Positions 12,349 to 60,712 of a stretch of DNA of 64,000 nt are shown in pieces. The notes beneath the pieces were generated by a model. The model ran no database searches, was not told the origin of the DNA, and saw nothing but the letters and a program-made list of their open reading frames with translations. The translations under genes were made by a program, and so were the position numbers. Positions within the stretch are counted from its first letter, which is position 1; the number at the start of each line of letters is the position of its first letter. The stretch spans positions 8,686 to 72,685 of the forward strand of contig JAXGPH010000003.1 in NCBI GenBank assembly GCA_040767065.1, given 5' to 3'. The DNA is from Anaerolineaceae bacterium. GTDB lineage: Bacteria; Chloroflexota; Anaerolineae; Anaerolineales; Anaerolineaceae.

Positions 12349-13775
12349 GTGCGCCCAGCATGGGCGCTGGCTGGAGGGTGAAAGACCATTACGGAGGGTT
12401 GTTGTGCCAACCGTCAGCCAAAGGCAAGGGCATGGAGGAAGCTGAAGCCAACCCTGTGGCTTGAAGGACATGAAGCCGATCAGAGGCTGTGCGGCTGGGC
12501 GAGTTGGCAAATAACAACGAAGCCCAATGCGGCCAAGAGCCAAAGCAGTAAATAGGGCAGGAGTGCAGGGAAAGTCAGCATGCTTACCTGGGGAGGTCTG
12601 CCATCGTTTTGGAAAGTAACCCTGTTTGAGAGGACAGGCTGAGGTGGCAGAAGTCGCTCGAGGCCATAGTACCAAGAGTTTTTTGGGAAGGGCCGAACAG
12701 TGAGAGGATGAGTACAGAGAGCAGTCCATGGGATGAGCGAGAAGACAGAAACCACTGACAGAGGGCTATCGAACAAACGAAGCAGGTGAAACCTACGCGC
12801 GGGATTTGATCGGAGCGTCGAGCCGTTCCCTACAACAATCATCCGCCACAACCCAACCAAACGGAACGGCGCGAGGCCGTTCCTACAATAATCATCCGCC
12901 ACGAGCAAGCGGAACAGCGAGAATATCCACCTTAGCTTTATGCCCTTATCGTTTTCGTAGGGAAGGGCTTGACCCCTTCTCAGCAGCATAGCCAAACCGC
13001 GGAACGGCGCAGGGATATCCACCTTGGCTTGGTTGTTTTCGTAGGGGAGGGCTTGACTCCTTCTCCAACATGGCCAAACGGAACGGCGCGAGGATGTCCG
13101 CCTTGGCGGAATTGTTTTCGTAGGGAAGGGGCTTATTTTCTCATTATGGCCAAGCGGAACGGCGCAAGGCCGTTCCTAACAATCATCCGCCACAACCAAA
13201 CGGAACGGCGCAGGCCGTTCCCTACAATGGTCTTATAGTTTCCGCTGTGTATACGGTTAACCACAGGGGGTTATCCCTACACCTGGAAGTTTGAGGAGCA
13301 GATCGCCACGCAAAGAAGCTCGCGATGACGGATTCAGGCCAGATCGCTACGCAACAGAAATATCACCACAGCCAGATCAGCATAAAGGAAAGAATCCCCG
13401 TAGGCCAGATGAGACCGCCCCGCGGCCTTACTCTCATCCAATCGTGCGGCTCAGTCGGCGCAATTCGCCGATAAACATTTTCCATGTCGAAAAAGGCAGA
13501 TCGCCGTACCCTGCTTCGCGGGCACAGGCGCAAAAGAGGCTCGCGATGCCGGATTGCCCCTACACCTGGGAGTTTGAATTCACCCATAACACAATCCAGT
13601 CAACACAATCTGGGGTTACCCCTACAATATGAGACCTGGCGGTCAACTGCCTCGCACGGTCTGGAGACCGGCGAGAACAAAGGTGTTGTATTCTGGTAGG
13701 GGCAGACCCCTGTGTCTGCCCTGAAGACCGTAAAAAATCACCCTGGATAATGTGTAAACAATCATACCTGTTTAA
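12349..13775 (-). repeat. mosaic non-coding repeat block 1 (module X, hairpin-unit array, GGGCAGAC-type palindromes)
   Basis: 12349-12830 is near-identical to the reverse complement of 60290-60620. 12830-13255 holds about 5 units with the hairpin GGAACGGC-N5-GCCGTTCC flanked by TGTAGGG/CCCTAC. 13690-13775 matches 59690-59770 in reverse. ORFs here are open in several frames and track the repeats. Confidence 0.7.
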
Positions 13776-24914: not shown

Positions 24915-24948
24915 CAAAAAAACACCTTCCGCCGGGAGGGTGTTTTTT
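24915..24948 (-). terminator. riboswitch expression-platform terminator
   Basis: The minus strand reads aacaccctcc-cggc-ggaaggtgtt followed by a T7 run, directly abutting the ATG of the thiamine pyrophosphokinase gene. Confidence 0.6.
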
Positions 24949-24957
24949 GGTCTGGCT

Positions 24958-25040
24958 GCACATCCCTCCGCCGGCATTATCCGGATCAGGTTTGTCGGGT
25001 CGGACTGTGCGTCCCTCTCAGCCTTGCGGCTCCCCGTGTT
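24958..25040 (-). promoter_or_regulatory. TPP (THI-box) riboswitch
   Basis: The minus strand reads acacggggagccgcaaggCTGAGAgggacgcacagtccgACCCgacaaACCTGATCCGGATAATGCCGGCGgagggatgtg, the canonical THI-box. A TATAAT box lies at about 25047-25056 on the same strand. Confidence 0.85.
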
Positions 25041-25164
25041 GATGGCATTATAATAGCACGGAAAACAAATGATTTCAAGAGCAAAGTGATTCTCAAGCGG
25101 TTCTCAAGCGGGCTTACGACTTCACTGCAAAAACGACAGGATAAAACTTATCCAAAAGAAACTC

Positions 25165-25395
25165 TGTAGTGCCTCAATAGAAATGTTCACTTTAGGTAAG
25201 TGGTTGGGATTTGTTGTTATTGGCCAACTTGCCCAGCCTCACAGCCTCTGATCGGCTTCATATCCTTCAAGCTGGAGGGTTGGCTTCAGCTTCCTCCATG
25301 CCCTTGCCTTTGGCTGACAGTTGGTACGACCAACCTCTGTAAGGGTCTTTCACCCTCTGGGCACCGCCCATGCTGGGCGCACAAAATCCCTGGGA
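25165..25395 (+). repeat. partial third copy of the module X tail, plus a fragment related to the B1 flank
   Basis: 25215-25385 matches the reverse complement of 12349-12520 (ttgcccagcctcacagcctctgatcggcttca..ggcttcagcttcctccatgcccttgcctttggctgac..). 25165-25200 in reverse matches 16600-16650. Confidence 0.6.
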
Positions 25396-34083: not shown

Positions 34084-34205
34084 GAAAAGCAAGGGAATCG
34101 GTTGGTAATATTATTACAACTAGTTCTCTCGTTCAAATATGGGTTTGAAATAGGCGATAGAATTAAGTAAATTAGTCTAATGAACAATAAAGGGTTAGTG
34201 ATTTT

Positions 34206-35006
34206 ATGACGAATGTCACGATTAGCATTATTACTTGCACCTTCAACAGCGAAAAGTACTTGCGAAACGCCTTGCAAAGTGTTGAAACCCAAACCTACCA
34301 GAAAATAGAACATATCATTAATGATGCATATTCGACCGACTCCACTCTGGACATTATTCGGGAGTATATGGAACGGAACAAAAATCGATATGCGATTAAA
34401 TTCATTCAATCGGAACCCAAGGGGGTTGGCAACGCGTTAAATATCGCAACCCGAGAAGCAACGGGCGAAGTGATCCATTATTTACATTCAGATGATTACT
34501 ACAAGAATCATACCTCGCTGGAGAAAGTGGCAGAAATTTTCAGTAAATATCCGGATCTGGTTTGGCTTACAGGCAACTTTTTAATCGAATTGGCAGGAAG
34601 AAAAATCGTCATTCCACAAACCCACCTGCTACGGAAGAAGCCAGAAGTAGCACTTTCTGTCATGAATATTATCTCACACGAAAATACTTTTATGAAGACC
34701 GAATATGTTCAAAACTATGGCGCATTTAACGAGGGGAAAAATGAAGTTGTGGAATACAGTTTATGGCTCAACCTTATCAAAGACATAAAGCCACTTGTCA
34801 TCGATGATGAATTTACTGTCTTTGTCATCCATAAGGGAAGTACCTCAACCGGTAGTATTCTAAAATTCGCAAAGGCAGTGATAAGAGCTTTCCGCACTCA
34901 GAGGAAGGAAAAGGTCTTTCCTTTAATTGGATACTATGCTAACAAGCGTGTTTATATCCTAACCAAATCAATCTTGAGGAAAGTAGCAAAATTAACCACG
35001 ATTTGA
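34206..35006 (+). CDS. glycosyltransferase family 2
   Basis: ISIITCTFNSEKYLRNALQSVETQTY..IINDAYSTD and HSDD motifs. It is visibly more AT-rich than its neighbours. Confidence 0.8.
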   Translation: MTNVTISIITCTFNSEKYLRNALQSVETQTYQKIEHIINDAYSTDSTLDIIREYMERNKNRYAIKFIQSEPKGVGNALNIATREATGEVIHYLHSDDYYKNHTSLEKVAEIFSKYPDLVWLTGNFLIELAGRKIVIPQTHLLRKKPEVALSVMNIISHENTFMKTEYVQNYGAFNEGKNEVVEYSLWLNLIKDIKPLVIDDEFTVFVIHKGSTSTGSILKFAKAVIRAFRTQRKEKVFPLIGYYANKRVYILTKSILRKVAKLTTI

Positions 35007-35129
35007 GCACTCTTCAATCGTGACCAAACAAGGTTTTCGACCGCCATTATTCAAGGTGCCTGCTTGCTCTCTGCAGTGACCTGTGCCCCTAAGCCTTTTA
35101 CACCAATAATTCCTGGATGTTTCCGACTG

Positions 35130-35444
35130 TTTCCAGCCCGCTTTGTTGTTTTTGAAGCTGCGATCCAATTCGCTCGGGCTAAATATATTGTTCCAGCGCC
35201 CGAATCCGCTCATGCCATCTGCACGGTTATCGATGAAACCATCGAGGTGCGCGAGAAGAGCGAAAAACGAGTGATCCTCTTCAATCTTTCCTGCCGCGGA
35301 CTTCTTGAACTTTCTGCTTATGACCAATATCTGCATAATGGCATGATCAACGGCAATGTATCTGATGATCAGCTTGAAGTGCCCTTTAAGCGTTTACCAA
35401 AGGGCAATTTTCCAGGCTTAGGCAGACTGTTAAACAAGGTTTAG
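35130..35444 (+). pseudogene. C-terminal remnant of a TrpB-like (tryptophan synthase beta type 2) PLP enzyme
   Basis: FEAAIQFARAKYIVPAPESAHAICTVIDETIEVREKSEKRVILFNLSCRGLLELSAYDQYL matches only the last ~100 aa of TrpB2-type proteins. No N-terminal part is present upstream. Confidence 0.5.
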
Positions 35445-35910
35445 AGGTAAGGTTCTGCCGCAAGCATTTATGCTTAGTGTAAGAAACGCATGCGCGAGAT
35501 TACAACTCACAACTTGTGTCATAACTGGTGTCATAACTGGCGGCTTTTTCTAATCTTTTGCTCTTTTCGATGAAAAGGTCACAACCCAGGACGAAACCCG
35601 CTTAATCAAAGGTGGCTGCAGACAATTTGCAATCACTCAATGCCCGATTTACTGAATGCAAGATAGCCAGGCTCATTACGGTTTGGTCTTCAACCACACC
35701 GGCTAAAAGGGTGGGCTCTTCTTTTATCCGATTTTGTCCATTCATAATCAGATAGTTTTCTCCCATTGCCATCGCCATTTTTCGGAATGGTCGATTTTGA
35801 ACGACTTTTGGTCCATATTGGAGTACGGTTTTTAAAAGCCTCTTTCAATTTCTGACTCAGCTTCTTAAAAATTGCTCCCATATCAACTGCCCCCTCTGAG
35901 GGTTGAACTC

Positions 35911-36459
35911 TTAGCGCTCGATTCCATCTCGGGCCTGGACGCCCTTCTGGTAGTAGTGCTTCACCTCTACCATCTCCGTCACCAGATCCGCCGCGGCGAT
36001 AACTTCAGGTGGCGCATATCGCCCGGTGAGGATGAGTTCCACGCCATCGGGCTTGTAGGCGATGATCTCCAGCATGTCTTCCAACGAAACCAAGTGGAAG
36101 TAGTGAGCCGTGTTGATCTCGTCGAGCACCACGATGTCGTATTCGCCGGAGAGCATGGACTTCTTTGCCCGCCTTAATCCTTCTTGGGCCATTTGAATGT
36201 CCTCCTCCCTGGGGGGATTATGGACGTGAATCCAGTCAGGCTTGCCATACTGTTCGATGGTAATGTAAGGCTGCACCATCTTCACCGCTTCAAGTTCGCC
36301 GTAATGCTGACCTTTCATGAATTGCCCGATGTAGCTTTTCAACCCATGGCCGGCAGCTCTGAAAGCCAGCCCCAGGGCAGCGGTCGTCTTGCCCTTGCAA
36401 TTCCCGGTGTAGACCTGCACGTAGCCCTTTCCTAACAGACCCGATGTGTTGGATGTCAT
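35911..36459 (-). CDS. cobO: cob(I)yrinic acid a,c-diamide adenosyltransferase
   Basis: GYVQVYTGNCKGKTTAALGLAFRAAGHG, QFMKG and VVLDEIN are typical of CobO/BtuR. Confidence 0.85.
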   Translation of the reverse strand: MTSNTSGLLGKGYVQVYTGNCKGKTTAALGLAFRAAGHGLKSYIGQFMKGQHYGELEAVKMVQPYITIEQYGKPDWIHVHNPPREEDIQMAQEGLRRAKKSMLSGEYDIVVLDEINTAHYFHLVSLEDMLEIIAYKPDGVELILTGRYAPPEVIAAADLVTEMVEVKHYYQKGVQARDGIER

Positions 36460-36831
36460 TGATGCCTTCTTTGCAGATCGGCCTCACAAAAAATAACCGA
36501 AATTCCGCGTGTAATAAAATTTACCAACAAATTCACCCCAGAAAGGTGACAGTTGTGTTTGACCTCATTTAAGTTTAGCATGGTTTTCTCCGTTGTCCAT
36601 CGATTTTAGTGACCCATTTCATAAAATGGATGTAGAAAAAGAGATTTCCCGGCTATGCTTAAATAAAGATAACAAATTAGGAAATAAAAATGTATTTTTC
36701 AAGAAAACTTCAATATTATTCACCACACCCTGCATATCCAACTTTCAATGGTTGGTATTTATTTTGTCAGGGCAATTCGATTTCTGTCAATTCGATAACC
36801 GCCAAAATTGACTTATTCCTGCCACTAATTC

Positions 36832-37205
36832 CTGTCAAGGCAACTTAGAAATGTCCTATTCGGTTGATAAAGTGTTCAGTACAGGTTTGCCATTTATCTT
36901 TTTTCCATAGGTCCTCCAAGGATGGTCATAAGCAGGCGGCAACGGGTTTGGACTCTCTGATTTGGAAGAGACAACCGCATCTTGCTTGGATCTTTGCTTC
37001 ACAGAACGGTTGTATTTGCCAGATCCCCGTTTCTTCGTAGTGGCAAGCCCCGTGCCGGTGTAGTGGCAGGCCCCCGTGCCGGTGTAGTGGCAACCCCCGT
37101 GCCGGCGTAGTGGCAGGCCCCCGTGCCTGCCATTTGGACCAGACGAAAAGCGGTCAACCATACCAATTTGATATTTTTGAAAGAACCATTAGTCCCTGTC
37201 AATTC
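36832..37205 (-). repeat. family-B intergenic element, copy B3 (about 4.5 internal units)
   Basis: Near-identical to B1 apart from the number of 23-24 bp units (unit starts at 37037, 37060, 37084, 37107). ctgtcaattc occurs at 36785-36794 and at 37196-37205. Confidence 0.6.
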
Positions 37206-37384
37206 AACTTATGTCAAGAAAAGAAAATTCCAGACAGAGGGTATCGTAGTGCAGAACAGCAGCATTTATAGTATAATAGGTTACTGGCGTTTAGGAAGCA
37301 GCAGGCTTTCGAGGCGCGTTTTGTATTAACCCAACCTGGTCCGGGGTTTGGGATTTTAGTGAACGTATTAAGGAATTTTATAAT

Positions 37385-41247: not shown

Positions 41248-41274
41248 AAGTCCGGGACGCAATCCCGGACTTTT
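41248..41274. terminator. bidirectional hairpin between the convergent anti-sigma and metK genes
   Basis: aaagtccggga-cgca-atcccggacttt flanked by A/T runs. Confidence 0.55.
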
Positions 41275-41297
41275 ATTTGGATTAATGAAAGGTTTTG

Positions 41298-42603: not shown

Positions 42604-42704
<101 letters not shown>

Positions 42705-44164: not shown

Positions 44165-44976
44165 TGCTGCGCCAGCGGGTACTCTCAGCCTTGATTTTTG
44201 TGCCCTTGGTCTTGGGTCTGGTATGGCTTGGGGGGATTACCTTTAATTTATTTCTGTTAGTTGTATTGGCATATGCGGGTTTTGAATATACCCGTATGCT
44301 TCAAAACTCAGGGTATAAGGTTTCTTATCCGCTGATGATTGCATCCATTGGCATGTTGGCCTTACTGCGCATATTCTTGACCGCTTGGCTGGAGCTGCTG
44401 GCATGGACGGTAATCCTGATGGTGCTGGGCATTTACAGTCTCTGGCAGTACGAGCATGGAGATGAGAAAGCCTTTATCAGCCTGGGGCTGCAGGTTTTTG
44501 GCGTGTTCTTTATTGGCGTGTTGGGGGCTTATGGCATCTCACTCAATCAAAGCCAGCCGCATGGAAATCTGTGGCTGCTGGTGACGATTACATTGGTGTG
44601 GCTGGTGGACGCCGGCGCTTATCTAATCGGCAGTAGGTTTGGAAAGCGCAACATCCTGCCCAGACTCAGCCCGAAAAAGACGCTTGAAGGCTTGATTGGT
44701 GGCACGCTGGTGGGATTGCTTTCGGGGGTGTTGATTGGCTGGCTTCTGCGCAAGCCTGTGCCGGAGTTGGGTCTGTTCACCGGAGCACTTTTAGGGCTGA
44801 TAATGAGCCCCACTGCGTTCTTTGGGGATACGCTGATGAGCCTGATCAAACGCACGCTGATGGTGAAGGATACCGGCAGCCTGATCCCGGGTCACGGCGG
44901 TGTGCTCGACCGGCTGGATTCGATGCTCTGGGCGATGGCAGTGGGGTATTATTTTTTCATGTTTTTTGGTTCGTAA
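44161..44976 (+). CDS. cdsA: phosphatidate cytidylyltransferase
   Basis: Polytopic membrane protein with SPKKTLEG and the C-terminal KRTLMVKDTGSLIPGHGGVLDRLDS signature. Confidence 0.85.
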   Translation: MMLRQRVLSALIFVPLVLGLVWLGGITFNLFLLVVLAYAGFEYTRMLQNSGYKVSYPLMIASIGMLALLRIFLTAWLELLAWTVILMVLGIYSLWQYEHGDEKAFISLGLQVFGVFFIGVLGAYGISLNQSQPHGNLWLLVTITLVWLVDAGAYLIGSRFGKRNILPRLSPKKTLEGLIGGTLVGLLSGVLIGWLLRKPVPELGLFTGALLGLIMSPTAFFGDTLMSLIKRTLMVKDTGSLIPGHGGVLDRLDSMLWAMAVGYYFFMFFGS

Positions 44977-44984
44977 ATAACAGG

Positions 44985-45600
44985 GCAGACACGATCCCTT
45001 ATTTGCCATAAGACCATCTTAAGGAAAAGACCTGCCTGTTCCACAACTTCTTGGTTGACGCAACCCGCAAGGGGAGGCTTTGCATGTGGTTACATGGGCA
45101 GACACAGGGTCTGCCCATGTAAAAGAACCGTGTTTACCCGAATAATTGCCATATTGAAAAACGCAATCCGGCCCACTCCATTTATTTTGATCGCTCCGGG
45201 CAGACAGGGGGCCTGCCCCTACATGAAACGATCTCAATCGAGAAAATCAATGCGGATGGACGCGAGGCCCATCCCTACGGTGGGTCCAACTCGTACGGTG
45301 GGGGTTTACTCCCACCGCGCTATCTAATCGTCAGGTTGCAATAGGTGAGGCACCCTTTCGTTCTCACCGGTCTCCCGTCCGTGCGAGATTTTTGAGCGTC
45401 AGGCCACATTTGGCAGCCCTTGGCGACTCCTGGGCAGGCACAGGGGGTTGACCCTACAAAATGAATGCCCATGTAGGGGTAACCCCCATGGTTATCCATG
45501 TACGAAAGCCGGATTGAAAAACGCAATCCAGTGACCCTCATGTGGTTACATGGGCAGACGCGAGGGGTTTGCGCATTATGCCCGCACTCGTCATTAGACC
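44985..45600. repeat. cluster of short palindromic repeats (GGGCAGAC-loop-GTCTGCCC type)
   Basis: Hairpins at about 45094-45118, 45198-45222, 45421-45445 and 45552-45575, usually followed by CTAC/CATG. The motif attgaaaaacgcaatcc is duplicated. The same hairpin family occurs at 13697-13720 and 59742-59766. Confidence 0.55.
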
Positions 45601-45635
45601 ACCGTAGTGAAAAGACCTGCCTTATCCTTGTCTTC

Positions 45636-45908
45636 AGCATGCGTAGATGCGATCTGGCTTCTTGCGATTGAGGGCGGTTTCCAACCCTCCTTCAAAATAG
45701 TCTCGGCGAACCTTGCTCACAGTTACGGTGGATACATCGAATGCTTCACAGATCACCTGATAATTCCAATCCGTTCCCTCGGTACTACTGTCTGACTTCA
45801 ACAATATCTGCGCTCGGCGCGGTTTCCGGCTGGCGCTGTACCGGAAGAAATGAACTGCCTTAATTGGGAACGTTCAACTTCGCTTAGTTTGATCTGATAT
45901 TTTGGTTC
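45636..45908 (-). pseudogene. N-terminal remnant of an IS630-family transposase (HTH region), frameshifted and truncated
   Basis: KYQIKLSEVERSQLRQFISSGTAPA is followed, after a 1-nt shift, by RKPRRAQILLKSDSSTEGTDWNYQVICEAFDVSTVTVSKVRRDYFEGGLETALNRKKPDR and then a stop. No DDE domain follows. Confidence 0.6.
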
Positions 45909-46043
45909 ATGGCGGTTGTCTTTTGCAGGTGTGTGGTTTGCAAAAAAGGTGGCATATTCCATGCAAAGTCTAACGTTTAGGTTGGATAGACTGCCAGCCG
46001 CCTCTGCTGCGCAACCTGAATTGAACAAATCTGGCTCTCGATA

Positions 46044-46865
46044 TTACCTCTCACGCTCGGTTACTGGAAGATCGCCTAACAGCAGCGTGGGTGTGATACC
46101 TTTATCCGTCAGGATCACCTTGGCGTTATCCTTCAGCGAGGCTTCCACCATCTCGATTTGCTTCAGTGCCTGGGCATTTCCGACAAAGTATTTCTCAGCC
46201 GATTCATTGACAAGCCTGATTGCCTCTGCCCGCCCTTCAGCAACCTTAATAGCCGCCTCACGTTCGCCTTCAGCCCGCTGGATTGCCGCCAATTTCTGTT
46301 GTTCAGCCGCCTCGAACTCACCCGTTGCCAGCAGCCTCATTGAGCGCCGCTCCTGCTCGGCTGTTTTCTGTTTGTGCATCGCCTTTTTGATATCCTCAGG
46401 TGGGTCGATCAGGCGAATTTCCACTTTGCTTACTGTCAGCCCCCATTCCACCGCGAAGTTGCCCAAAACAGCTTTGAGGTTCGTTGCGATTTTCTCCCTG
46501 GCAACCAGGCTCTCGTCCAGAGTCAAGTCGCCGAACTCCTGCCGCAGGTTGGTCATCGCCAGTTGAATTATGGCTCGTTTCCAATCATCGATATTGTAGA
46601 ATGTGCGCTTGATCGAATCTTCGTCAGTAGATGGACGCACCCACATGACGCCGTCAACCGAGATTTCGACATTATCCTTGGTAATGACAGATTGGGGCAT
46701 GATGTCCATGGTATGCTCGCGAATATCCCGAACCCGCACTAATTGCAAAAAAGGTAACTGCAAGCCCAAGCCAGGAAGTACAAAGCGGGTATATTTTCCC
46801 AGCGTTTCCTGGATGCCTCGTTCGTAGGGTCGTAAGGTAAAAATGGGGGTTACTATGGTTCTCAT
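46044..46865 (-). CDS. SPFH/band-7 (stomatin-like) domain protein lacking an obvious N-terminal membrane anchor
   Basis: The SPFH core is PYERGIQETLGKYTRFVLPGLG..VITKDNVEISVDGVMWVR..EWGLTVSKVEIRLIDPPEDI, followed by an Ala/Glu-rich coiled coil. Confidence 0.85.
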   Translation of the reverse strand: MRTIVTPIFTLRPYERGIQETLGKYTRFVLPGLGLQLPFLQLVRVRDIREHTMDIMPQSVITKDNVEISVDGVMWVRPSTDEDSIKRTFYNIDDWKRAIIQLAMTNLRQEFGDLTLDESLVAREKIATNLKAVLGNFAVEWGLTVSKVEIRLIDPPEDIKKAMHKQKTAEQERRSMRLLATGEFEAAEQQKLAAIQRAEGEREAAIKVAEGRAEAIRLVNESAEKYFVGNAQALKQIEMVEASLKDNAKVILTDKGITPTLLLGDLPVTERER

Positions 46866-47017
46866 AATTGGTCCTTGATCTCAAATCCCGATATGTCCAT
46901 TGGTCTGATACAGCTCAAATTTTACGCCTGCATACTGATTATTAAATTAATAATAGCAAAGCAACAGGCAGATGTCAAACTTAATCGTGTCTACGGCGCC
47001 TTTTCATTTCTGTATTA

Positions 47018-47353
47018 TTACATGCTGATGACTTTTTCCCCTTCTAGCAGCGCGGCAAATATTCCGGGCATGCCGCCTGTCTTACCAACCCTCACCTTGT
47101 CTGTCAGCTCAAAGTTCTCCAGGCATGTAGAGCAGATTGTCAGCTCCATCCCCGCTGCTGCCAGTATCCTCACCCAATCCAGCATCGGCGAGCCTTCACA
47201 CACCAGTTTCACACCTTTAGCATAAAACACAACCTAAGCGGGCTTCTCTTCTTCCTGGGCTGCCAGGCTCAGAAATTTCACAGCCAGGGTTTGCGGCCAA
47301 TTTTCCGGAGCATCCCCCATCCCATTATGGGTAAACAAAAAGACGGTCTTCAT
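47018..47353 (-). pseudogene. DsrE-like (YedF C-terminal-domain-like) protein with an in-frame TAG
   Basis: MKTVFLFTHNGMGDAPE..EEKPA, then a stop, then VVFYAKGVKLVCEGSPMLDWVRILAAAGMELTICSTCLENFELTDKVRVGKTGGMPGIF..GEKVISM. A single frame of 112 codons, with the TAG at 47234-47236. Confidence 0.6.
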
Positions 47354-47444
47354 TGGCTCTCCTACTGGATGTGCATGGGCGGCTTGAAGCCCTCCAAAAA
47401 ACCCGGGATCTCAGCTTAATGTCAGTTCCGGGCCATCTGAATCA

Positions 47445-48150
47445 CAACTACCCGCTATGCGGGTGGTTTGCACTGAGGCTATAAGCCTTGTTCTCTAGCC
47501 AGCGCCTCAAGGCGCTGGCTTTCTCTTCGTTCAAGCCACCTTGCACTTGTCTCTTTTGCCGCCCCTCAAGGGGCTATCTCTTATCTCTTCTGTTCAAATG
47601 GGTCCTGGTATTCCTTCACACTCAACCGGTCTACCGCCTGATCCCTTTGTTCTTGCTCTGCTATGTACTTCTTGATTGTCTCTTCATTCATTCCCACTGT
47701 ACTCACATAGTATCCCTCACACCAGAAGTGCCGGTTCCCATATTTGTACTTCAGGTTCGCATGCCTCTCAAAGATCATCAGCGCACTCTTCCCCTTCAGG
47801 TATCCCATCACACTCGATACACTGTACTTCGGTGGAATACTCAACAACATGTGGATGTGATCCGGCATCATGTGCCCTTCGATGATCTCCACCCCCTTAT
47901 ACTTGCACAATTCCACCAGAATCTCTTTTATGTCTTCCCGTATTTGATTGTAGATTATTTTTCGCCTATACTTTGGCGTGAATACGATGTGATATTTGCA
48001 CATCCATTTCGTGTGTGCCAGACTGTCTGTTTTATTGGCCATACAAAACACCTTTCCTCTCTGGTCTGTGGCTTGAACACTCACATTCTATCGGAAGGGT
48101 GTTTTGGTTTGGGTCTAACCCTTTGCCCCCACCCGCATAGCGGGTGATTT
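47445..48150 (-). mobile_element. IS200/IS605-family insertion sequence (tnpA only)
   Basis: A Y1 transposase gene flanked by subterminal hairpins cccgctatgcggg (47450-47462) and cccgcatagcggg (48132-48144). Extra hairpins lie at 47495-47518 and about 47557-47573. The boundaries are approximate. Confidence 0.7.
47581..48042 (-). CDS. tnpA: IS200/IS605 family transposase TnpA (Y1 HUH)
   Basis: HTKWMCKYHIVFTPKYRRK, the HUH motif MPDHIHMLLSIPP, and the catalytic Tyr region GYYVSTVG. Confidence 0.85.
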   Translation of the reverse strand: MANKTDSLAHTKWMCKYHIVFTPKYRRKIIYNQIREDIKEILVELCKYKGVEIIEGHMMPDHIHMLLSIPPKYSVSSVMGYLKGKSALMIFERHANLKYKYGNRHFWCEGYYVSTVGMNEETIKKYIAEQEQRDQAVDRLSVKEYQDPFEQKR

Positions 48151-48238
48151 TTGTCTCTTCGTTTCACGAGTTCGACTGCCTAAAGGCGTAATATATACCA
48201 GGCTCGGGTTGAGCCTGGCATAGCACAGTTATCGAAGT

Positions 48239-49003
48239 CTATACTGGTGCAAGCGTACCTGCGAAAATCATCCAGGCGAGTGCCGTCTTGGAAGTCAGGC
48301 TGAGGATGATGTAGGCTCTCTCGCCCACGAGATAATCCTTCCAGGCGCCAACTTTTTTGTACTGCAGGATCATGTTGATCGCAAAGGAATTGAAGAAAAC
48401 GAAAATGGTCGGAATGATCGCGTAAACGAACGTCGGCGGCTTAGCTCCTGAGGAGTTGATGGCGCTAAGGAAGTAGATCATGATCACAACCCAGGGAATG
48501 ATCCCCGCCACACTGCCATAAACAAAGGAAAGCCAGTTGGTTTTCTTGGTGTACTGGTTGTGGTACTCCATCATGATGCCAAACAAGTTCATGGTTGCGT
48601 TCAGGAAGAACACCAGGATAATGCTTCCCAGATCCCAGATGCCAACCAGCTGCCCGATCAGGACGATCATCAGAGATGAGCTGAGCGCATACTCGTAGAA
48701 GCGAATAGGATTCATGTTGCGATCAAGGAAGCTGGTGTAGCGCTTGTAGCCGATGGTAGAGATATAAAAATGCGCCACGGCAGAAATCAGCAAAAAGATC
48801 GCCACTGCAATGCCAAACGGAACTTCCCAGAAAAGCTTGGGGTCAGGAACGAGCTTTCGGGTTTCAAGATTGAAGGTCAGAAAATTGGTAAAGATTGGAT
48901 AAGTTGTGTCATTGCTGAGCACAATCATGAGTACGCCCTGAATAAGATGCAGGAAGCCTATGAGCAGGTTGAACTTACGTAAGCCTTGATATTTTGTTTC
49001 CAT
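48239..49003 (-). CDS. heliorhodopsin
   Basis: 7 TM segments. TM1 is LRKFNLLIGFLHLIQGVLM. TM3 is NPIRFYEYALSSSLMIVLI, with Glu at the counterion position. TM7 is ILSLTSKTALAWMIFAGTLAP, with the Schiff-base Lys. IIPW and FFNSFAINMILQYKK segments are also present. Confidence 0.85.
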   Translation of the reverse strand: METKYQGLRKFNLLIGFLHLIQGVLMIVLSNDTTYPIFTNFLTFNLETRKLVPDPKLFWEVPFGIAVAIFLLISAVAHFYISTIGYKRYTSFLDRNMNPIRFYEYALSSSLMIVLIGQLVGIWDLGSIILVFFLNATMNLFGIMMEYHNQYTKKTNWLSFVYGSVAGIIPWVVIMIYFLSAINSSGAKPPTFVYAIIPTIFVFFNSFAINMILQYKKVGAWKDYLVGERAYIILSLTSKTALAWMIFAGTLAPV

Positions 49004-49300
49004 ATAATCCTCGTTATTAAATTTTATTGTATAAGATTAATTATTAAAATTTTATTACTTTGGCGTTTTTGTACAATAGCTTGTACATAGATTGTGGGTT
49101 GATTCAATGATCAAAAGGTGAGCAAATCGTACCCCTTCGCAAGGTGCAAAACATCACGAACCTCGGGTTATTCATAGTAAAATAATCCGAAGAACAAAAC
49201 GACACCTGCTGTAACCTCCAAGTGACATAGAGAAGGAGTTTTTGCTCACGAAAGGTTGATCGGCAAATCGTTTTGCGGTAGCTTTTGTGAAAGAATCTGA

Positions 49301-50404
49301 ATGGATTACGATGTCATCATTATTGGTGGCGGGCTCTCAGGCTTGACAGCAGCAAGTTTGCTTGCAAAACGGCAGGTGAAAGTTGCGGTAATTGATAAAA
49401 ATTAAAACCCGGGCGGCTCTTGCGGCATTTTCAAGCGGGGTTCTGTGACCTTCGACCAGGGTTCCGCCATGCTATACGGCTTTGGCAAAAGCGGCTTCAA
49501 CAGCTACCGGTTCGTGTTCAACTGCCTCGAAGAACCCATCGACGTGATCCGGCATGATTTATTGTACTGCGTCAATTATCAAGACCAGAGAATTTTCTTC
49601 TGGTCGGATGTGGACAAATTTGCGGACGAACTGGCAAAGATCTTTCCATCAGAAAAGGAAAACATTCATCGCTTCTATCGCGACATGACTAGGATGTGCC
49701 AGCATGTCATGCTAGAAACGCCCAGCTACACAACTCCTGACGAAACCGATCCGAAACAAGGGCTGAAAAGCCTCCTGAAACACCCAATTTCCTATGCCAA
49801 ATTCCTGGGGTACCTGAATAAAAGCGCCCGTAGTTTGCTCCAAAAATACTTTAAGGATCCGGAGATTTTCAACTTTTTTGACAAACTCATCTCCACTTAT
49901 TGCTATGCCACCGTTGAGGAAGCCCTCGCAGTCCTGGCAGCCGTTATGTTCGTGGATAACCACATCGGAGGCAGCTACTATCCCGCCGGCTCCACCCTCT
50001 TCCTCCCGGGAAAGCTCGAGAAAGTCATTGAAGAAAATGGCGGCAACATACTCCTGGACCGCGAAGTTTTGAGCATCCTTTTTGAGGACGAGAACCCAAC
50101 AGGTGTGATGCTGAACGACGGAACAGAGCTAAGAGCACCGAACTTGATCTACTTGGGCACGATCTGGAACCTGTTCGGCAAGCTTATCGACCCTACCAAC
50201 ACCGCGCAAGTTCAGCGCGACTGGGCGAAAAGCATGGTACCCACCTACCCAAGCGTAGTGCTCTGTGCCGTCGTCGAGCGTGAGGTCATCCCTGCGGATA
50301 CCCTGCCGATTGAGATGCTGGTTGGCAACCCGGAGAAGCTTGACGACACGAATTTGGACGAGTTGGACAAAAGGATCAGCATCGCCAAGAGCGAAGATTT
50401 CTAG
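49301..50404 (+). pseudogene. CrtI/phytoene-desaturase-family FAD oxidoreductase with an in-frame TAA and a missing C-terminal third
   Basis: Rossmann N-terminus MDYDVIIIGGGLSGLTAASLLAKRQVKVAVIDKN, a stop at 49403-49405, then NPGGSCGIF in the same frame. The ORF ends at ISIAKSEDF after about 368 codons, where family members usually continue for another ~120 aa. Confidence 0.6.
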
Positions 50405-50473
50405 AAAGCTCACTCCGTTAATTTGATCAATTCTTTCAACCAACTGAACCGATAAACCAAGCGCAAGCAACCT

Positions 50474-50518
50474 ATAGAGCTTGGGAAGCACTTTTGCTTG
50501 CTGCTTCCCAAGCTCTAT
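50474..50518. repeat. perfect 17-bp-stem hairpin
   Basis: atagagcttgggaagca - 11 nt loop - tgcttcccaagctctat, between the truncated crtI-like gene and the DUF2974 remnant. Confidence 0.6.
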
Positions 50519-50622
50519 TGATTTTAATATTTTGAAGAAGAAATATTAAATCTTCCTATCGAATTTGATTTTCAGAATGCTCAGCAATCGAATGGTTCAC
50601 CACCAAATTGCTGTTAATCCAG

Positions 50623-51755
50623 TTACAATTTTTCCCTAAGCGCTTTTAAGATGGTATCCAATGCCTGATCTTTGATTGAGGCAAGCACATCCGACAACAT
50701 TTTTCTAGTCTCTTCATCAAGATCGGATACATTCTTGATGACCTTGCCGATATCTTTGAGACTCTCTTTCGGGTCGATCGTTTTTCCTTCCGAAGCGCCC
50801 AGCACATCAAATAAAGCATCGATGAAGGCTTTGCGACGCTCCAGGGTTAGCTGCGCAAGCCACTTCTCGACGGTTTCTTCAAACAACTTTGTCGTTTCAG
50901 ATAACTCCCCACTCAGGAACTCAGACTGCTCTATGCCCCATGTTACCGGGTTGTGCTGGAATAGATGGTGGGCTGTACTGCTGATTACGTTCCGTTTGCC
51001 AACTGTATCAAGGAGGACACCAACAATGGATTCCTCGGGCACATAATTAACCACTTTTTGCTCGCATTTGGAAAAGGAGGAACGAGAAAGTATTGAGAAG
51101 TTAAAACCGGGACCGTCAAAGTTTAACTATACGTGACAAACGTGACTGCTTGATGCCTTTCAGGCGTGAAGCAGCATACACCGCCAGGTTGCCGCCTTTG
51201 GAATGTCCGCACACAGTCCTTTACCAGAGAGAACACTAATCTCACGATTAAGATATTCGAACCGGTCCTGCGCCGGCACTTCTTTCATATAAGCCAACTC
51301 GAAATTTTCCTTCCAGCCGATAAGGGTTCTGTCGGTACCTCGGAATGCGATTACTTTTTCCGTTGGGCATCTGGTAATGAGTAGGTAATCGCGGCAAATT
51401 GCTGTTCAACAGGAAAATCAGTTTTCTCAACAAAGTGGGATAATCGTATTTTGGCATAGCGTGTTGATTTTGATGTCATTTTCAACATCTGGATTAATTC
51501 CTGGTCCATAGAAGGGCTGACAGTCAGACCAATATTTTCAGGATCTTCTTTGTGTGATGGATGCTCTGAAAAATAGCTCTCCGCGGTTTCTTCAAGAGTA
51601 ATTTTCCCTTTGTCATTTACGCCTGGCACAATATCCTTAAAAGGCAGGTAACTGAGCATAGACAGAATGAGCGCATCGACGTCATTGAAAGGATCTTTCG
51701 AAAAATCTAAATCCCCAGACGATTTGAGATAATCCAGCACCGTTCCCATATTCAT
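50623..51755 (-). pseudogene. DUF2974 (Mbeg1-like alpha/beta hydrolase) gene with at least 3 frameshifts
   Basis: The N-terminus MGTVLDYLKSSGDLDFSKDPFNDVDALILSMLSYL is in ORF 51351..51755. VIAFRGTDRTLIGWKENF, GHSKGGNLAVYAAS and FDGPGF follow in shifted frames. The C-terminal part is ORF 50623..51054. Confidence 0.65.
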
Positions 51756-51890
51756 GCTCCAAATTTAATCATACCGAAAATCCGCGTCAAAAATATTTTA
51801 CAACCATCATACCTTAAGGGGGATGATAGTTATAAGAAATTAGTGCATGTTTTAACCAAAAACGACCAGAAATGGTCGTTTGGAAAATAG

Positions 51891-51962
<72 letters not shown>

Positions 51963-55699: not shown

Positions 55700-55965
55700 A
55701 TCTGTTTGCCATTCGGACAAAAAAATGCCCATCCGGATAAAGGGACGGGCAAAAAAGCCGTGGTACCACCCTTCTTGGCTGGCAGAGCCAGCCCTCTCAG
55801 GTCGTTCTGTAACGGGAACTCCCGGCGCGGACTACTTGCACATTGGTTTCACCCGCTCGACTCCTGAGGGAACTTCACCTTTCGCTTGCCTGACGCTGCT
55901 CTCAATCTCGACCGCGCCTCCCTGTTGGGGCTCTAAAGCCTACTTTCCTCACTCACCATCGTTCG
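55700..55965 (-). promoter_or_regulatory. T-box leader (Phe specifier candidate UUC) upstream of pheST
   Basis: The conserved T-box AAGAAGGGTGGTACCACGG is at 55758-55776 on the minus strand. Stem I elements TGAGAGCAGCG and GGGTGAAACC are present. UUC occurs in both candidate specifier-loop positions. A TATAAT box lies at 55970-55975. Confidence 0.8.
55718..55752 (-). terminator. T-box leader terminator
   Basis: The minus strand reads tgcccgtccctttatccggatgggca followed by a T7-8 run. Its 5' arm can alternatively pair with the T-box sequence. Confidence 0.7.
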
Positions 55966-58989: not shown

Positions 58990-60712
58990 GGCATAATGCG
59001 CCGTTTTTACGCACTCCGCCAACGACGTGGGTATCGGAGCGATCCTGCGCAAGGCTTGTATGGAAATAACGCTCTGAGGCAGCCTTGTTCTGACACACAA
59101 CACCCCGTGCGGACCCGGGCAGGCATGGGGGTCTGCTGCTACCCGGAAATATCCTTGTGCGGGTCACCCCATGGGGTGACCCGTCTCGGTTGAGGCATCT
59201 CACAAAGGAAGGCACGGCATCCAACAGGGGGAGGCTTCACACTGCTGTGCCCCGACCAAAAAGGATATGTTCTCGCCGCTCTGCAGATACCCCCCACTTT
59301 GTTGCGATCACAGACCGCACTAGGGGGTTGACCGCCAGGTCTCATAAGGTAGGGGTAACCCCCCTGGTTAACCGTCTACACGGCAGAAACTATAAGACCA
59401 TTGTAGGGAAAAGGCCTGTGCAGTTCCGTTTGGTTGTGGCGGGTGATTGTTGTAGGGAACGGCCTTGCGCCGTTCCGGTTAGCCATGTTGAGGACAGGGG
59501 TCAAGCCCCTTCCCTACGAAAACAATCAAGCCAAAGTGGATATCCTCGCGTCGTTCCGTTTGGTTGTGGCGGGTGATTATTGTAGGGAACGGCCTCGCGC
59601 CGTTCCGGTTGATTGTGGCGGGTGATTATTGTAGGGAACGGCCTCGCGCCGTTCCGGTTAGCCATGTTGAGGAAGGGGTCAAGCTGTTTAGACAAGTATG
59701 ATTGTTTACACATTATACAGGGTGATTGTTTACATATTCCAGGGCAGACACGGGGGTCTGCCCCTACAAAGCTGCCCCCTCCTTAACCCCTGGAGATAGG
59801 GGTAACCCCCTGTGGTTACCCGCTCTCATGGCATATATGCGCTTGGTATTATGATCCAGAAGATTCTATGTGATTGACAAAAGTGTAAACAATCATCCTA
59901 CACAAATTGTAAACCATCATTGCCTCAGCCCCTTCCCTACGAAAACAATCAAGCCAAAGTGGATATCCTCGCGCCGTTCCGTTTGTTTGTGGCGGATGAT
60001 TGTTGTAGGGAACGGCCTTGCGCCGTTCCGGTTAGCCATGTTGAGGACGGGGTCAAGCCCCTTCCCTACGAAAACAATCAAGCCAAGGTGGATATCCTCG
60101 CGCCGTTCCGTTTGTTTGTGGCGGATGATTGTTGTAGGGAACGGCCTTGCACCGTTCCGTTTGGCCATGCTGAGGAAGGGGTCAAGCCCCTTCCCTACGA
60201 AAACAATCAAGCCAAGGTGGATATCCTCGCGCCGTTCCGTTTGTTTGTGGCGGATGATTGTTGTAGGGAACGGCCCGACGCTCCGATCAAATCCCACAGG
60301 CTTCACCTGCTTCGTTTGTTCGATAGTCTCTCTGCCCGAGGGTTTCTGTCTTCCTCGCTCATCCCACGAACTGCTCTCTGTACTCATCCTCTCAACGTTC
60401 GGCCCTTCCCAAAAAACTCTTGGTACTATGGCCTCTGCTGACTTCTGCCACCTCAGCCTGTCCTCTCAAACAGGGTTACTTTCCAAAACGATGGCAGACC
60501 TCCCCAGGTAAGCATGCTGACTTTCCCTGCACTCCTGCCCTATTTACTGTTTTGGCTCTTGGCCGCATTGGGCTTCGTTGTTATTTGCCAACTCGCCCAG
60601 CCTCACAGCCTCATAGGGTTCGTGCGCCTCAGGTCGCAGGTTTGCTTCCAGCTTCCTCCAGACCCCGCCTCACGACGACGCCCTTGCCTTCAGCTAACGG
60701 TTGATGGGTGAA
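58990..60712 (+). repeat. mosaic non-coding repeat block 2, an inverted counterpart of block 1
   Basis: It contains a 22-24 bp perfect palindrome GGGTCACCCCATGGGGTGACCC (59161-59182), degenerate hairpin units at 59400-59690, a GGGCAGAC hairpin at 59742-59766, a 129-bp tandem array at 59925-60290, and module X at 60290-60712. Confidence 0.7.
59925..60290 (+). repeat. 129-bp tandem repeat, about 2.8 copies
   Basis: ccttccctac recurs at 59931, 60060 and 60189 (period 129). Each unit carries GGAACGGC-cttgc-GCCGTTCC and the longer inverted pair CCCTACgaaAACAATC / GATTGTTGTAGGG. Confidence 0.8.

Follow-up and report, generated by a model that had tools for sequence, protein, structure and literature searches.

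A gene for heliorhodopsin (HeR) and its surroundings are the subject of this analysis. The gene lies in a 64,000-nucleotide stretch of the genome of an Anaerolineaceae bacterium (NCBI GenBank assembly GCA_040767065.1, contig JAXGPH010000003.1, positions 8,686 to 72,685 of the forward strand), which is called the window throughout and numbered from its first letter. Most probably, HeR is here a self-contained, monocistronic photoreceptor gene in a relic locus: the gene cluster that faces it in related genomes would have been destroyed, its downstream flank exchanged at an IS200 insertion sequence (IS), and the DsrE-like and SPFH genes that now follow it would be neighbours by chance. For the most part, what is seen here is ordinary decay of a genome in the neighbourhood of a gene from a known family. 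The original prediction, made from the DNA letters, had seen in HeR and the two following genes a former operon, and in the gene facing them a failing chromophore supply. Labels of the form L001 designate individual loci or contigs of our comparative datasets; feature coordinates are collected in Table 1.

Heliorhodopsin and its downstream neighbours

The HeR protein matches PF18761 over its full length (331 bits; cut-off 26.7) and NF038020 with 357 bits (cut-off 100); its best match in the PDB is TaHeR (239 bits). Residue K239 aligns with the lysine of the ...vaKsalaw motif of transmembrane helix 7 in TaHeR and 48C12, and E104 with the glutamate of the ...rwfEYsis motif of transmembrane helix 3; we take the former to be the Schiff-base lysine and the latter the counterion (K238/E108 in TaHeR, K241/E107 in 48C12). 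The conserved histidines H19 and H78 are also in place, and the protein carries the fenestration motif F160/S164/G167/F204/N205/A208. Compared with relatives, the ratio of nonsynonymous to synonymous substitution rates (dN/dS) is 0.035-0.06, i.e. the gene is maintained by strong purifying selection. The full-length profile match, the key residues and this selection bear out the earlier statement that the reading frame remains intact. The closest structural counterparts are TaHeR (6IS6) and 48C12 (6SU3). HeRs are already known from anaerobic Anaerolineae (PMC8612252), and those of clusters C13/C15 (Bulzu et al. 2021, PMC8612252) share with the window gene the HeR profile, the lysine, the glutamate and the type of host, an anaerobic, monoderm-type member of the Chloroflexota. 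Measured against them the protein is ordinary, and the genomic setting alone is unusual.

According to the operon proposal, a sensor (HeR), a sulfur/selenium-carrier partner (the DsrE-like protein) and a membrane-scaffold partner (the SPFH protein) were once encoded together and later split by IS200. The three genes are indeed co-oriented, and if the IS is removed, the gaps between them shrink to only about 120 nt and 152 nt. The proposal can be weighed against 80 HeR loci, nearly all of them from Anaerolineae, which were obtained by scanning a single genome of each species. In tblastn searches with the window proteins, none of the 80 loci contains a DsrE-like gene and none has an SPFH gene downstream of HeR. 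The lone SPFH match near an HeR gene (L018) is only 37% identical and lies 3.8 kb upstream in the opposite orientation. Unsupervised clustering of all open reading frames (ORFs) within 5 kb of HeR likewise shows no association with DsrE-like or SPFH genes. The same tblastn searches show that IS200 is absent from all 80 loci, which answers in the affirmative one of the checks that had been suggested with the operon proposal.

The reverse search leads to the same picture. With the SPFH protein as query, 80 loci were obtained from metagenomes, and the context was judged in those longer than 5 kb (about 40). There, orthologues with 90-97% amino-acid identity are stand-alone genes in other contexts, and no DsrE-like gene, HeR or cdsA was found near any of them (0 of 40). 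In the three loci that were read, the SPFH gene is followed by an oppositely oriented ORF of about 363 amino acids, which by eye we presume to be RtcB-like. DNA homology between these loci and the window is limited to positions 45996-46995, and this conserved block includes a promoter of the SPFH gene's own: TTGACA-17-TATTAT with an upstream TG (extended -10) at 46950-46978, in the gap between the DsrE-like and SPFH genes, agreeing with the sigma70 type at 11 of 12 positions. An N-terminal membrane anchor is typical of the stomatin/HflKC members of the SPFH family. The window protein has no transmembrane segment, its highest 19-residue Kyte-Doolittle hydropathy being 1.1, in agreement with the original prediction. 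Because the orthologues have the identical length of 273 amino acids and the same anchorless N-terminus, the lack of an anchor is evidently the native state.

The DsrE-like gene is a pseudogene, and its lesion is fixed in the population. The ORF scores 27.3 bits against PF02635 (cut-off 22.7) and 71 bits against TIGR03527 (cut-off 110), in the latter case along profile positions 85-193 only, which correspond to the C-terminal half. Codon 40 is an in-frame TAG. This stop is also found in independent metagenome contigs with 97-100% identity to the window (L087, L089, L090), of which L087 adds a 1-nt deletion, and the population variation in the gene is about five times that of the SPFH gene. The likeness to DsrE and to the C-terminal part of YedF had been noted in the original prediction; the stop codon had been missed.

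On the other side of the IS, the end of HeR carries its own signal. The sequence after HeR consists, in 11 relatives, of GCCAGGCTC-N5-GAGCCTGGC (the second arm also given as GAGCCTGG) and a run of five to seven T, an arrangement that, judged by its sequence, represents a canonical intrinsic terminator of HeR. The window keeps the stem; homology ends at the last stem base (48198), TATATATTAC stands where the T-tract was, and then comes the IS, flush against the stem. The fold z-score of -4.3 over the surrounding 81 nt agrees with the hairpin that had been suspected just past the HeR stop codon. In contig L081 (position ~2590; window 48206-48210), the terminator loop is reverse-complemented from GGGTT to AACCC with the stem unchanged; the loop may have flipped, or the assembly may be ambiguous at this point.

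Because there is no conserved gene order, because HeR has its terminator and because SPFH has its promoter, HeR, the DsrE-like gene and SPFH appear to be separate transcription units by descent. Loss of the T-tract makes read-through from HeR conceivable today; as an ancestral arrangement, however, a common operon of the three genes is extremely unlikely in view of these results, to which the dead state of the DsrE-like gene and the discontinuity of the homology blocks have to be added. The earlier claims of a former operon and of co-transcription also fail by the refuting conditions that had been set for them; they are therefore abandoned, and the adjacency of the three genes would be secondary. 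In the literature, we found no report that ties HeR to DsrE-like or SPFH proteins. A partner of HeR was likewise proposed from adjacency in the case of AbHeR and glutamine synthetase (PMC9529153); however, these two share an operon and their interaction was demonstrated by experiment, whereas the downstream candidates of the window fail on conservation.

The upstream side of HeR is conserved in a different way. A perfect palindrome, TGTACAA-GCTA-TTGTACA (49070-49087), is located approximately 67-84 nt before the start codon, in overlap with a -35-like TTGTAC. It occurs once in the window, where 0.02 matches would be expected by chance, and among 175 loci it is confined to regions upstream of HeR, including that of L054, whose HeR is 66% identical. 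The palindrome is a candidate operator for a regulator of HeR; the site spacings that we presume for operators of the CarH/LitR or LexA type do not fit it. A second element, the box GGATTATTTTACTATGAATAA at 49168-49188, is almost invariant in the close HeR clade, even where the divergent gene described below has been deleted, and could be a promoter or 5'-untranslated-region element.

The divergent gene cluster and its remnant

Fifteen genomes contain an HeR that is at least 85% identical at the amino-acid level to that of the window. In 14 of these 15 close loci, one or both of two flavin-dependent enzyme genes lie upstream of HeR, on the strand opposite to it, with or without two further genes. 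The complete cluster consists of four genes: a 614-aa CrtISO/CrtD-like enzyme that binds flavin adenine dinucleotide (FAD) and heads the cluster (CrtA614), a 523-aa CrtI-family paralogue (CrtB523), a GT2 glycosyltransferase, and a glycosyl-diaponeurosporenoate acyltransferase of the CrtO type (PF18927, 112 bits; cut-off 27). GT2 and the PF18927 CrtO stand beside CrtI-like genes in L001, L002, L004, L006, L007, L009, L051, L075 and L175. Counted by species, the 614-aa gene accompanies the cluster genes in 15 close species, either whole or as a short remnant, and 14 of these have it beside HeR. The clustering of neighbouring ORFs confirms that CrtI-like proteins are the most recurrent family next to HeR, in 14 loci that all belong to the close clade. 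Two additional proteins of the relatives are less telling: a 267-aa membrane protein adjoining the cluster (Mem267) matches no Pfam family even at E=1, and a 301-aa protein downstream of HeR (P301) shows only a sub-threshold hint of a squalene-hopene-cyclase repeat. Neither the rest of the cluster nor the ancestral downstream genes (DUF7000, DUF3795, P301) are found elsewhere in the window.

What remains of the cluster in the window is the 5' part of its first gene. Compared with the intact 614-aa genes, the fragment has 81-85% amino-acid identity over their first 369-370 residues (also given as about 350), and its homology to intact orthologues stops at approximately 50346-50350, around codon 350. 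Hence about 350 of 614 codons, i.e. the 5' 57%, are kept and about 43% are lost, more than the C-terminal third that had been reported as missing. The TAA at codon 35, in contrast, was described correctly, and it recurs in L081-L084. The related claim that HeR faces a decaying gene of carotenoid type gains support from the conserved four-gene cluster at the same position in the relatives.

By its profile matches, the 614-aa enzyme belongs to the flavin amine-oxidase/CrtI-like superfamily. The fragment reaches 32 bits against PF01593 (gathering threshold 19.8) and an intact orthologue 55 bits, with the GxGxxG motif at residues 9-14. The best-scoring more specific family is TIGR02730, carotenoid isomerase (fragment 172 bits along profile positions 1-345 of 493; intact orthologue 251 bits; cut-off 587), followed by CrtD, all of these scores being below the curated cut-offs. 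Against TIGR02734, the CrtI phytoene desaturase, the fragment scores 66 bits and the intact orthologue 107 bits (cut-off 238). The label 'CrtI-family' given in the original prediction is thus valid for the superfamily, but not for the CrtI profile itself.

Inactivation of the gene looks recent, because its pairwise dN/dS (0.056-0.087) is barely above that among intact copies (0.03-0.08). The same is indicated by its 28 private nucleotide changes, of which 16 alter the amino acid at otherwise invariant positions, including P209L and Y322C. Read as a test for relaxed constraint, these counts are suggestive, but not clean, since L075 also shows 11 of 22.

As to its product, the cluster looks like one for carotenoid modification by glycosylation and acylation, and not like a retinal pathway. 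The late-step genes of C30 carotenoid synthesis in the staphyloxanthin pathway are crtN, crtP, crtQ and crtO. The operon of the relatives likewise combines two CrtI-superfamily enzymes, a GT2 and a PF18927 CrtO, a comparison that rests on Pfam and NCBIfam names and on general knowledge of the pathway. Unlike the staphyloxanthin genes, it is accompanied by no CrtM/CrtB-type synthase in the loci inspected, its FAD enzymes score below cut-off, the first of them being a 614-aa CrtISO/CrtD-like protein, and its hosts come from anaerobic reactors. Among the HeR-adjacent genes that were read or profile-scanned there is no cyclase or cleavage oxygenase, and in L075 none of them matched retinal-pathway families. 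Nothing ties the cluster to retinal synthesis, and the idea of a chromophore supply gains no support. Published surveys report that HeR-only genomes generally lack a retinal pathway (bioRxiv 10.1101/2021.02.01.429150).

The cluster erodes repeatedly within the clade. Only 10% of the 614-aa gene is left in L004, L008 and L009, and L003 lacks it; HeR is intact in all four. GT2 and CrtO are missing in L003 and L008. The reverse of the window state is seen in L175 (9016-9772; JGI Ga0228536_1000094), where HeR is dead, with a 7-nt deletion, the nonsense change W123*, 22 private amino-acid changes and a dN/dS of about 0.085, and CrtA614, CrtB523, GT2 and CrtO are all intact beside it. A split HeR match in L074 was also considered as a lesion; it was rejected because it is due to a run of N.

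Block boundaries, mobile elements and the origin of the locus

DNA homology with the closest HeR loci covers only positions 48198-50346 (2.15 kb). Upstream, synteny with L167-L170 (GreA … MetK, Frr, UppS, CdsA) ends exactly at the cdsA stop codon (44977). Past cdsA, these relatives possess genes for PGM, SIMPL, NurA, a HerA-like protein and Rad50, none of which is present in the window. Apart from one insertion specific to the window and one segment missing from it, the synteny is collinear: an insertion of about 3.1 kb follows the rhomboid gene (34121-37263), and around 41271-41276 the window lacks a segment of about 2 kb, which in the relatives contains a sortase-like gene and another gene without annotation. 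Between 44978 and about 51800 extends a patchwork of some 7 kb in which no gene is intact except HeR and SPFH.

Table 1. Features of the HeR region in window coordinates
Feature	Position	Strand	Evidence or remark
Segment past the synteny breakpoint, without intact genes	44978-46043	.	REP-like palindromes, transposase helix-turn-helix remnant
Transposase-type helix-turn-helix remnant, no catalytic domain	45634-46028	-	HTH_23, 28 bits, two frames joined
SPFH/Band-7 gene, intact, 273 aa, no membrane anchor	46044-46865	-	PF01145, 113 bits
DsrE/YedF-C-terminal-like pseudogene	47018-47353	-	PF02635, TIGR03527; in-frame TAG 47234-47236
IS200/IS605-family element (ends approximate)	47430-48197	-	Y1_Tnp, hairpins, DNA similarity
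tnpA of IS200/IS605	47581-48084	-	PF01797 (Y1_Tnp)
Predicted HeR terminator hairpin, 9-bp stem and 5-nt loop, T-tract lost	48198-48219	-	alignment of relatives, fold z-score
HeR gene, intact, 254 aa	48239-49003	-	PF18761 and NF038020
Divergent intergenic region	49004-49300	.	alignment of 15 loci
Pseudogene of 614-aa CrtISO/CrtD-like FAD oxidoreductase	49301-50404	+	TAA 49403-49405
Mbeg1-like (DUF2974, lipase-like) pseudogene, several frameshifts	50623-51755	-	PF11187
tRNA-Met	51890-51962		

Because both premature stops and the junctions outside the IS interior recur in independent contigs, they are neither sequencing nor assembly artefacts. L087 spans the junctions from cdsA through SPFH to the DsrE-like gene (window 44693-47320), L089 those from SPFH through the DsrE-like gene to the end of the IS (45815-47535), and L081 those from the IS through HeR and the FAD gene fragment to the sequence beyond (47510-50801). 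The interior of the IS is the only part that is not independently spanned; L081 and L089 overlap there by 26 nt. Several metagenome contigs break off within the IS or close to it, which is expected of a multi-copy repeat.

The tnpA product of the IS scores 144 bits against PF01797 along profile positions 2-121 of 121, perfect 17-nt subterminal hairpins are located at 47450-47466 and 48129-48145, and positions 47432-48185 show 70% DNA similarity to annotated IS200 elements. The element was therefore identified correctly in the original prediction, which had assigned it too narrow an extent (47445-48150). The Y1 transposase, the subterminal hairpins and the position against a stem-loop are features that it shares with IS200/IS605 insertions beside hairpins. 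Unlike in a simple insertion of this kind, the sequence past the IS of the window is not the ancestral one.

The outer parts of the patchwork contain further debris. In the non-coding stretch next to the cdsA breakpoint are repetitive-extragenic-palindrome-like (REP-like) repeats, TTACATGGGCAGAC / GTCTGCCCATGTAA, at 45083-45122 and 45539-45559, a 47-nt direct repeat (44996-45042 and 45581-45627), and the helix-turn-helix remnant, which is probably left over from another IS. At the other end, the fragments of the Mbeg1-like pseudogene match PF11187 at profile positions 141-224 and 2-37, and a three-frame repair raises this to 222 bits over positions 2-224 of 224. Homologues of this gene are too few, and their contexts uninformative, for the boundary on the side of pheT to be placed with their help. 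A match of 230 nt (59692-59919) to the region just past HeR in L075 was considered as displaced synteny, and was rejected and treated as a mobile-element repeat; it lies in or near a group II intron (Rfam 60402-60679), also matches L051 away from HeR, and is probably intron-related. Group II intron D1-D4 matches occur three times in the 64 kb, at 12418-12693 (+), 25156-25313 (-) and 60402-60679 (-). Together with IS200 and the pseudogenes, the introns suggest a genome rich in mobile elements. Three RNA elements of the window, all of an ordinary kind, exceed the Rfam gathering threshold: an S-adenosylmethionine (SAM) riboswitch upstream of metK (42606-42702), a thiamine pyrophosphate (TPP) riboswitch (24946-25046) and a T-box leader upstream of pheS-pheT (55738-55965).

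One might suppose that the HeR block was acquired horizontally, on a mobile island between cdsA and tRNA-Met. The patchwork does adjoin the tRNA gene and does contain IS200 and a transposase remnant. However, neither an integrase nor a direct repeat of the tRNA was seen, and the GC content is unremarkable. The nucleotide identity of the HeR block with its relatives (79-84%; HeR alone up to 86%) is furthermore similar to that of the housekeeping genes from frr to cdsA (84.5-88%), as fits vertical descent with internal rearrangement. We regard such an island as very unlikely.

The purifying selection on HeR, the boundaries of the blocks, the divergent arrangement in the relatives and the fixation of the lesions in the population are shown by the data. 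On this basis, the favoured reading, a self-contained HeR gene in a relic locus, can be spelled out as follows. The region from 44978 to about 51800 would be a rearrangement scar in which unrelated blocks have come together: repeats, SPFH, the dead DsrE-like gene, IS200, the HeR block and the dead Mbeg1-like gene. Positions 48198-50346 would be the last remains of an ancestral HeR locus, in which HeR, a monocistronic gene that had its own promoter, an operator-like palindrome and an intrinsic terminator, probably stood divergent from a four-gene operon of carotenoid type. This operon appears to have been truncated within its leading gene, at codon ~350, and that gene also gained a nonsense codon. 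Past the terminator stem of HeR the sequence would have been replaced, with the IS200/IS605 element exactly at the breakpoint, and recombination mediated by the IS may have caused this break. HeR itself would be a retinal photoreceptor that needs neither the 614-aa enzyme nor the DsrE-like or SPFH protein, and the product of the ancestral cluster may have been a glycosylated, acylated carotenoid.

Some observations do not sit easily with this model. Only 64 kb of the genome are in view, so that a second copy of the cluster or true partners of HeR may lie elsewhere. No second IS200 copy that could explain the recombination is present in the window, and either the insertion or the rearrangement may have come first. 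HeR has 14 private nucleotide changes, seven of which alter the amino acid; some relaxation of constraint in the lineage of the window is possible, these numbers being too small to tell. The carotenoid assignment holds at the level of the superfamily, with NCBIfam equivalog and subfamily scores below cut-off. No phytoene or dehydrosqualene synthase was found in L075, which was profile-scanned, or in L001 and L008, which were read; this screen covered these three loci only. Finally, the 614-aa family is conserved at 71-76% identity in Clostridia metagenome-assembled genomes, where it occurs in unrelated contexts (L171-L174, from Clostridiaceae and Anaerolineaceae assemblies). Such unusually high conservation between Anaerolineaceae and Clostridia hints that the gene has spread horizontally and serves strict anaerobes in a way that may have no link to carotenoids.

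Heliorhodopsin and carotenoids in the clade

Another question is whether HeR and the divergent cluster form a functional unit in this clade, either because a glycosylated, acylated carotenoid made by the cell itself serves HeR as second chromophore or photoprotectant, or because both are co-regulated by light. Of the 15 close species-level genomes, 14 retain their adjacency, even where a local rearrangement has inserted Mem267 between HeR and the cluster (L005, L010, L011, L074), and the two sides share an intergenic region with conserved motifs. On the other hand, the linkage is confined to one shallow clade, as HeR loci with amino-acid identity of 81% or less do not show it, and the conserved palindrome is found on the HeR side only. 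Each partner also persists without the other: HeR is intact and constrained where the full 614-aa gene is gone (L003, L004, L008, L009 and the window), and the cluster is intact where HeR is dead (L175).

For most HeRs, a 2025 preprint (bioRxiv 10.1101/2025.11.27.691015) puts forward a binding of exogenous xanthophylls by way of a lateral fenestration. The motif concerned is present in the window HeR; however, it is reported in 91% of HeRs and hence does not discriminate. In the published HeR surveys, some Zn-finger HeRs are flanked by genes for carotenoid biosynthesis, photolyase and UvdE, a UV-repair enzyme (PMC8612252). These loci resemble ours in that HeR lies next to CrtI-superfamily genes, and a related CrtA614-CrtB523 pair stands beside UvdE in another Anaerolineaceae genome (L172), in the order AraC-type regulator, 614/523 pair, UvdE, which is at least compatible with a theme of light or UV. 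They differ in that the window HeR has no Zn-finger and that its clade has a cluster with GT2 and CrtO and without synthase or cyclase, which in the window is destroyed. We did not find a linkage between HeR and a CrtO-type cluster in Anaerolineaceae described in the literature. On balance, a functional unit of HeR and cluster is improbable. The same low probability is granted to its more specific form, which concerns a single genus-level clade of Anaerolineaceae from reactors: there, a genetic coupling would exist between HeR and a divergently transcribed cluster that makes a carotenoid for it.

If such a coupling existed, the window would represent a natural knock-out of its pigment arm and, together with L175, a pair of reciprocal knock-outs. 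It would also lend genomic support to HeRs with two chromophores, and at the same time qualify the assumption that the carotenoid comes from outside the cell.

The function of HeR is still open, and guilt by association is the chief source of hypotheses about it. Against this background, the window demonstrates how a plausible 'partner operon' can arise from scrambling associated with an IS, and the DsrE-like and SPFH proteins drop off the list of candidate HeR partners. The linkage between HeR and the cluster, which is specific to the clade and has eroded repeatedly, offers a testable lead for the carotenoid-antenna hypothesis. Its erosion is consistent with a piecemeal decay of light-related genes in lineages whose habitat is mostly dark, as far as this habitat can be judged from the sample names alone (anaerobic membrane bioreactor (AnMBR), fermentation, bioreactor, activated sludge).

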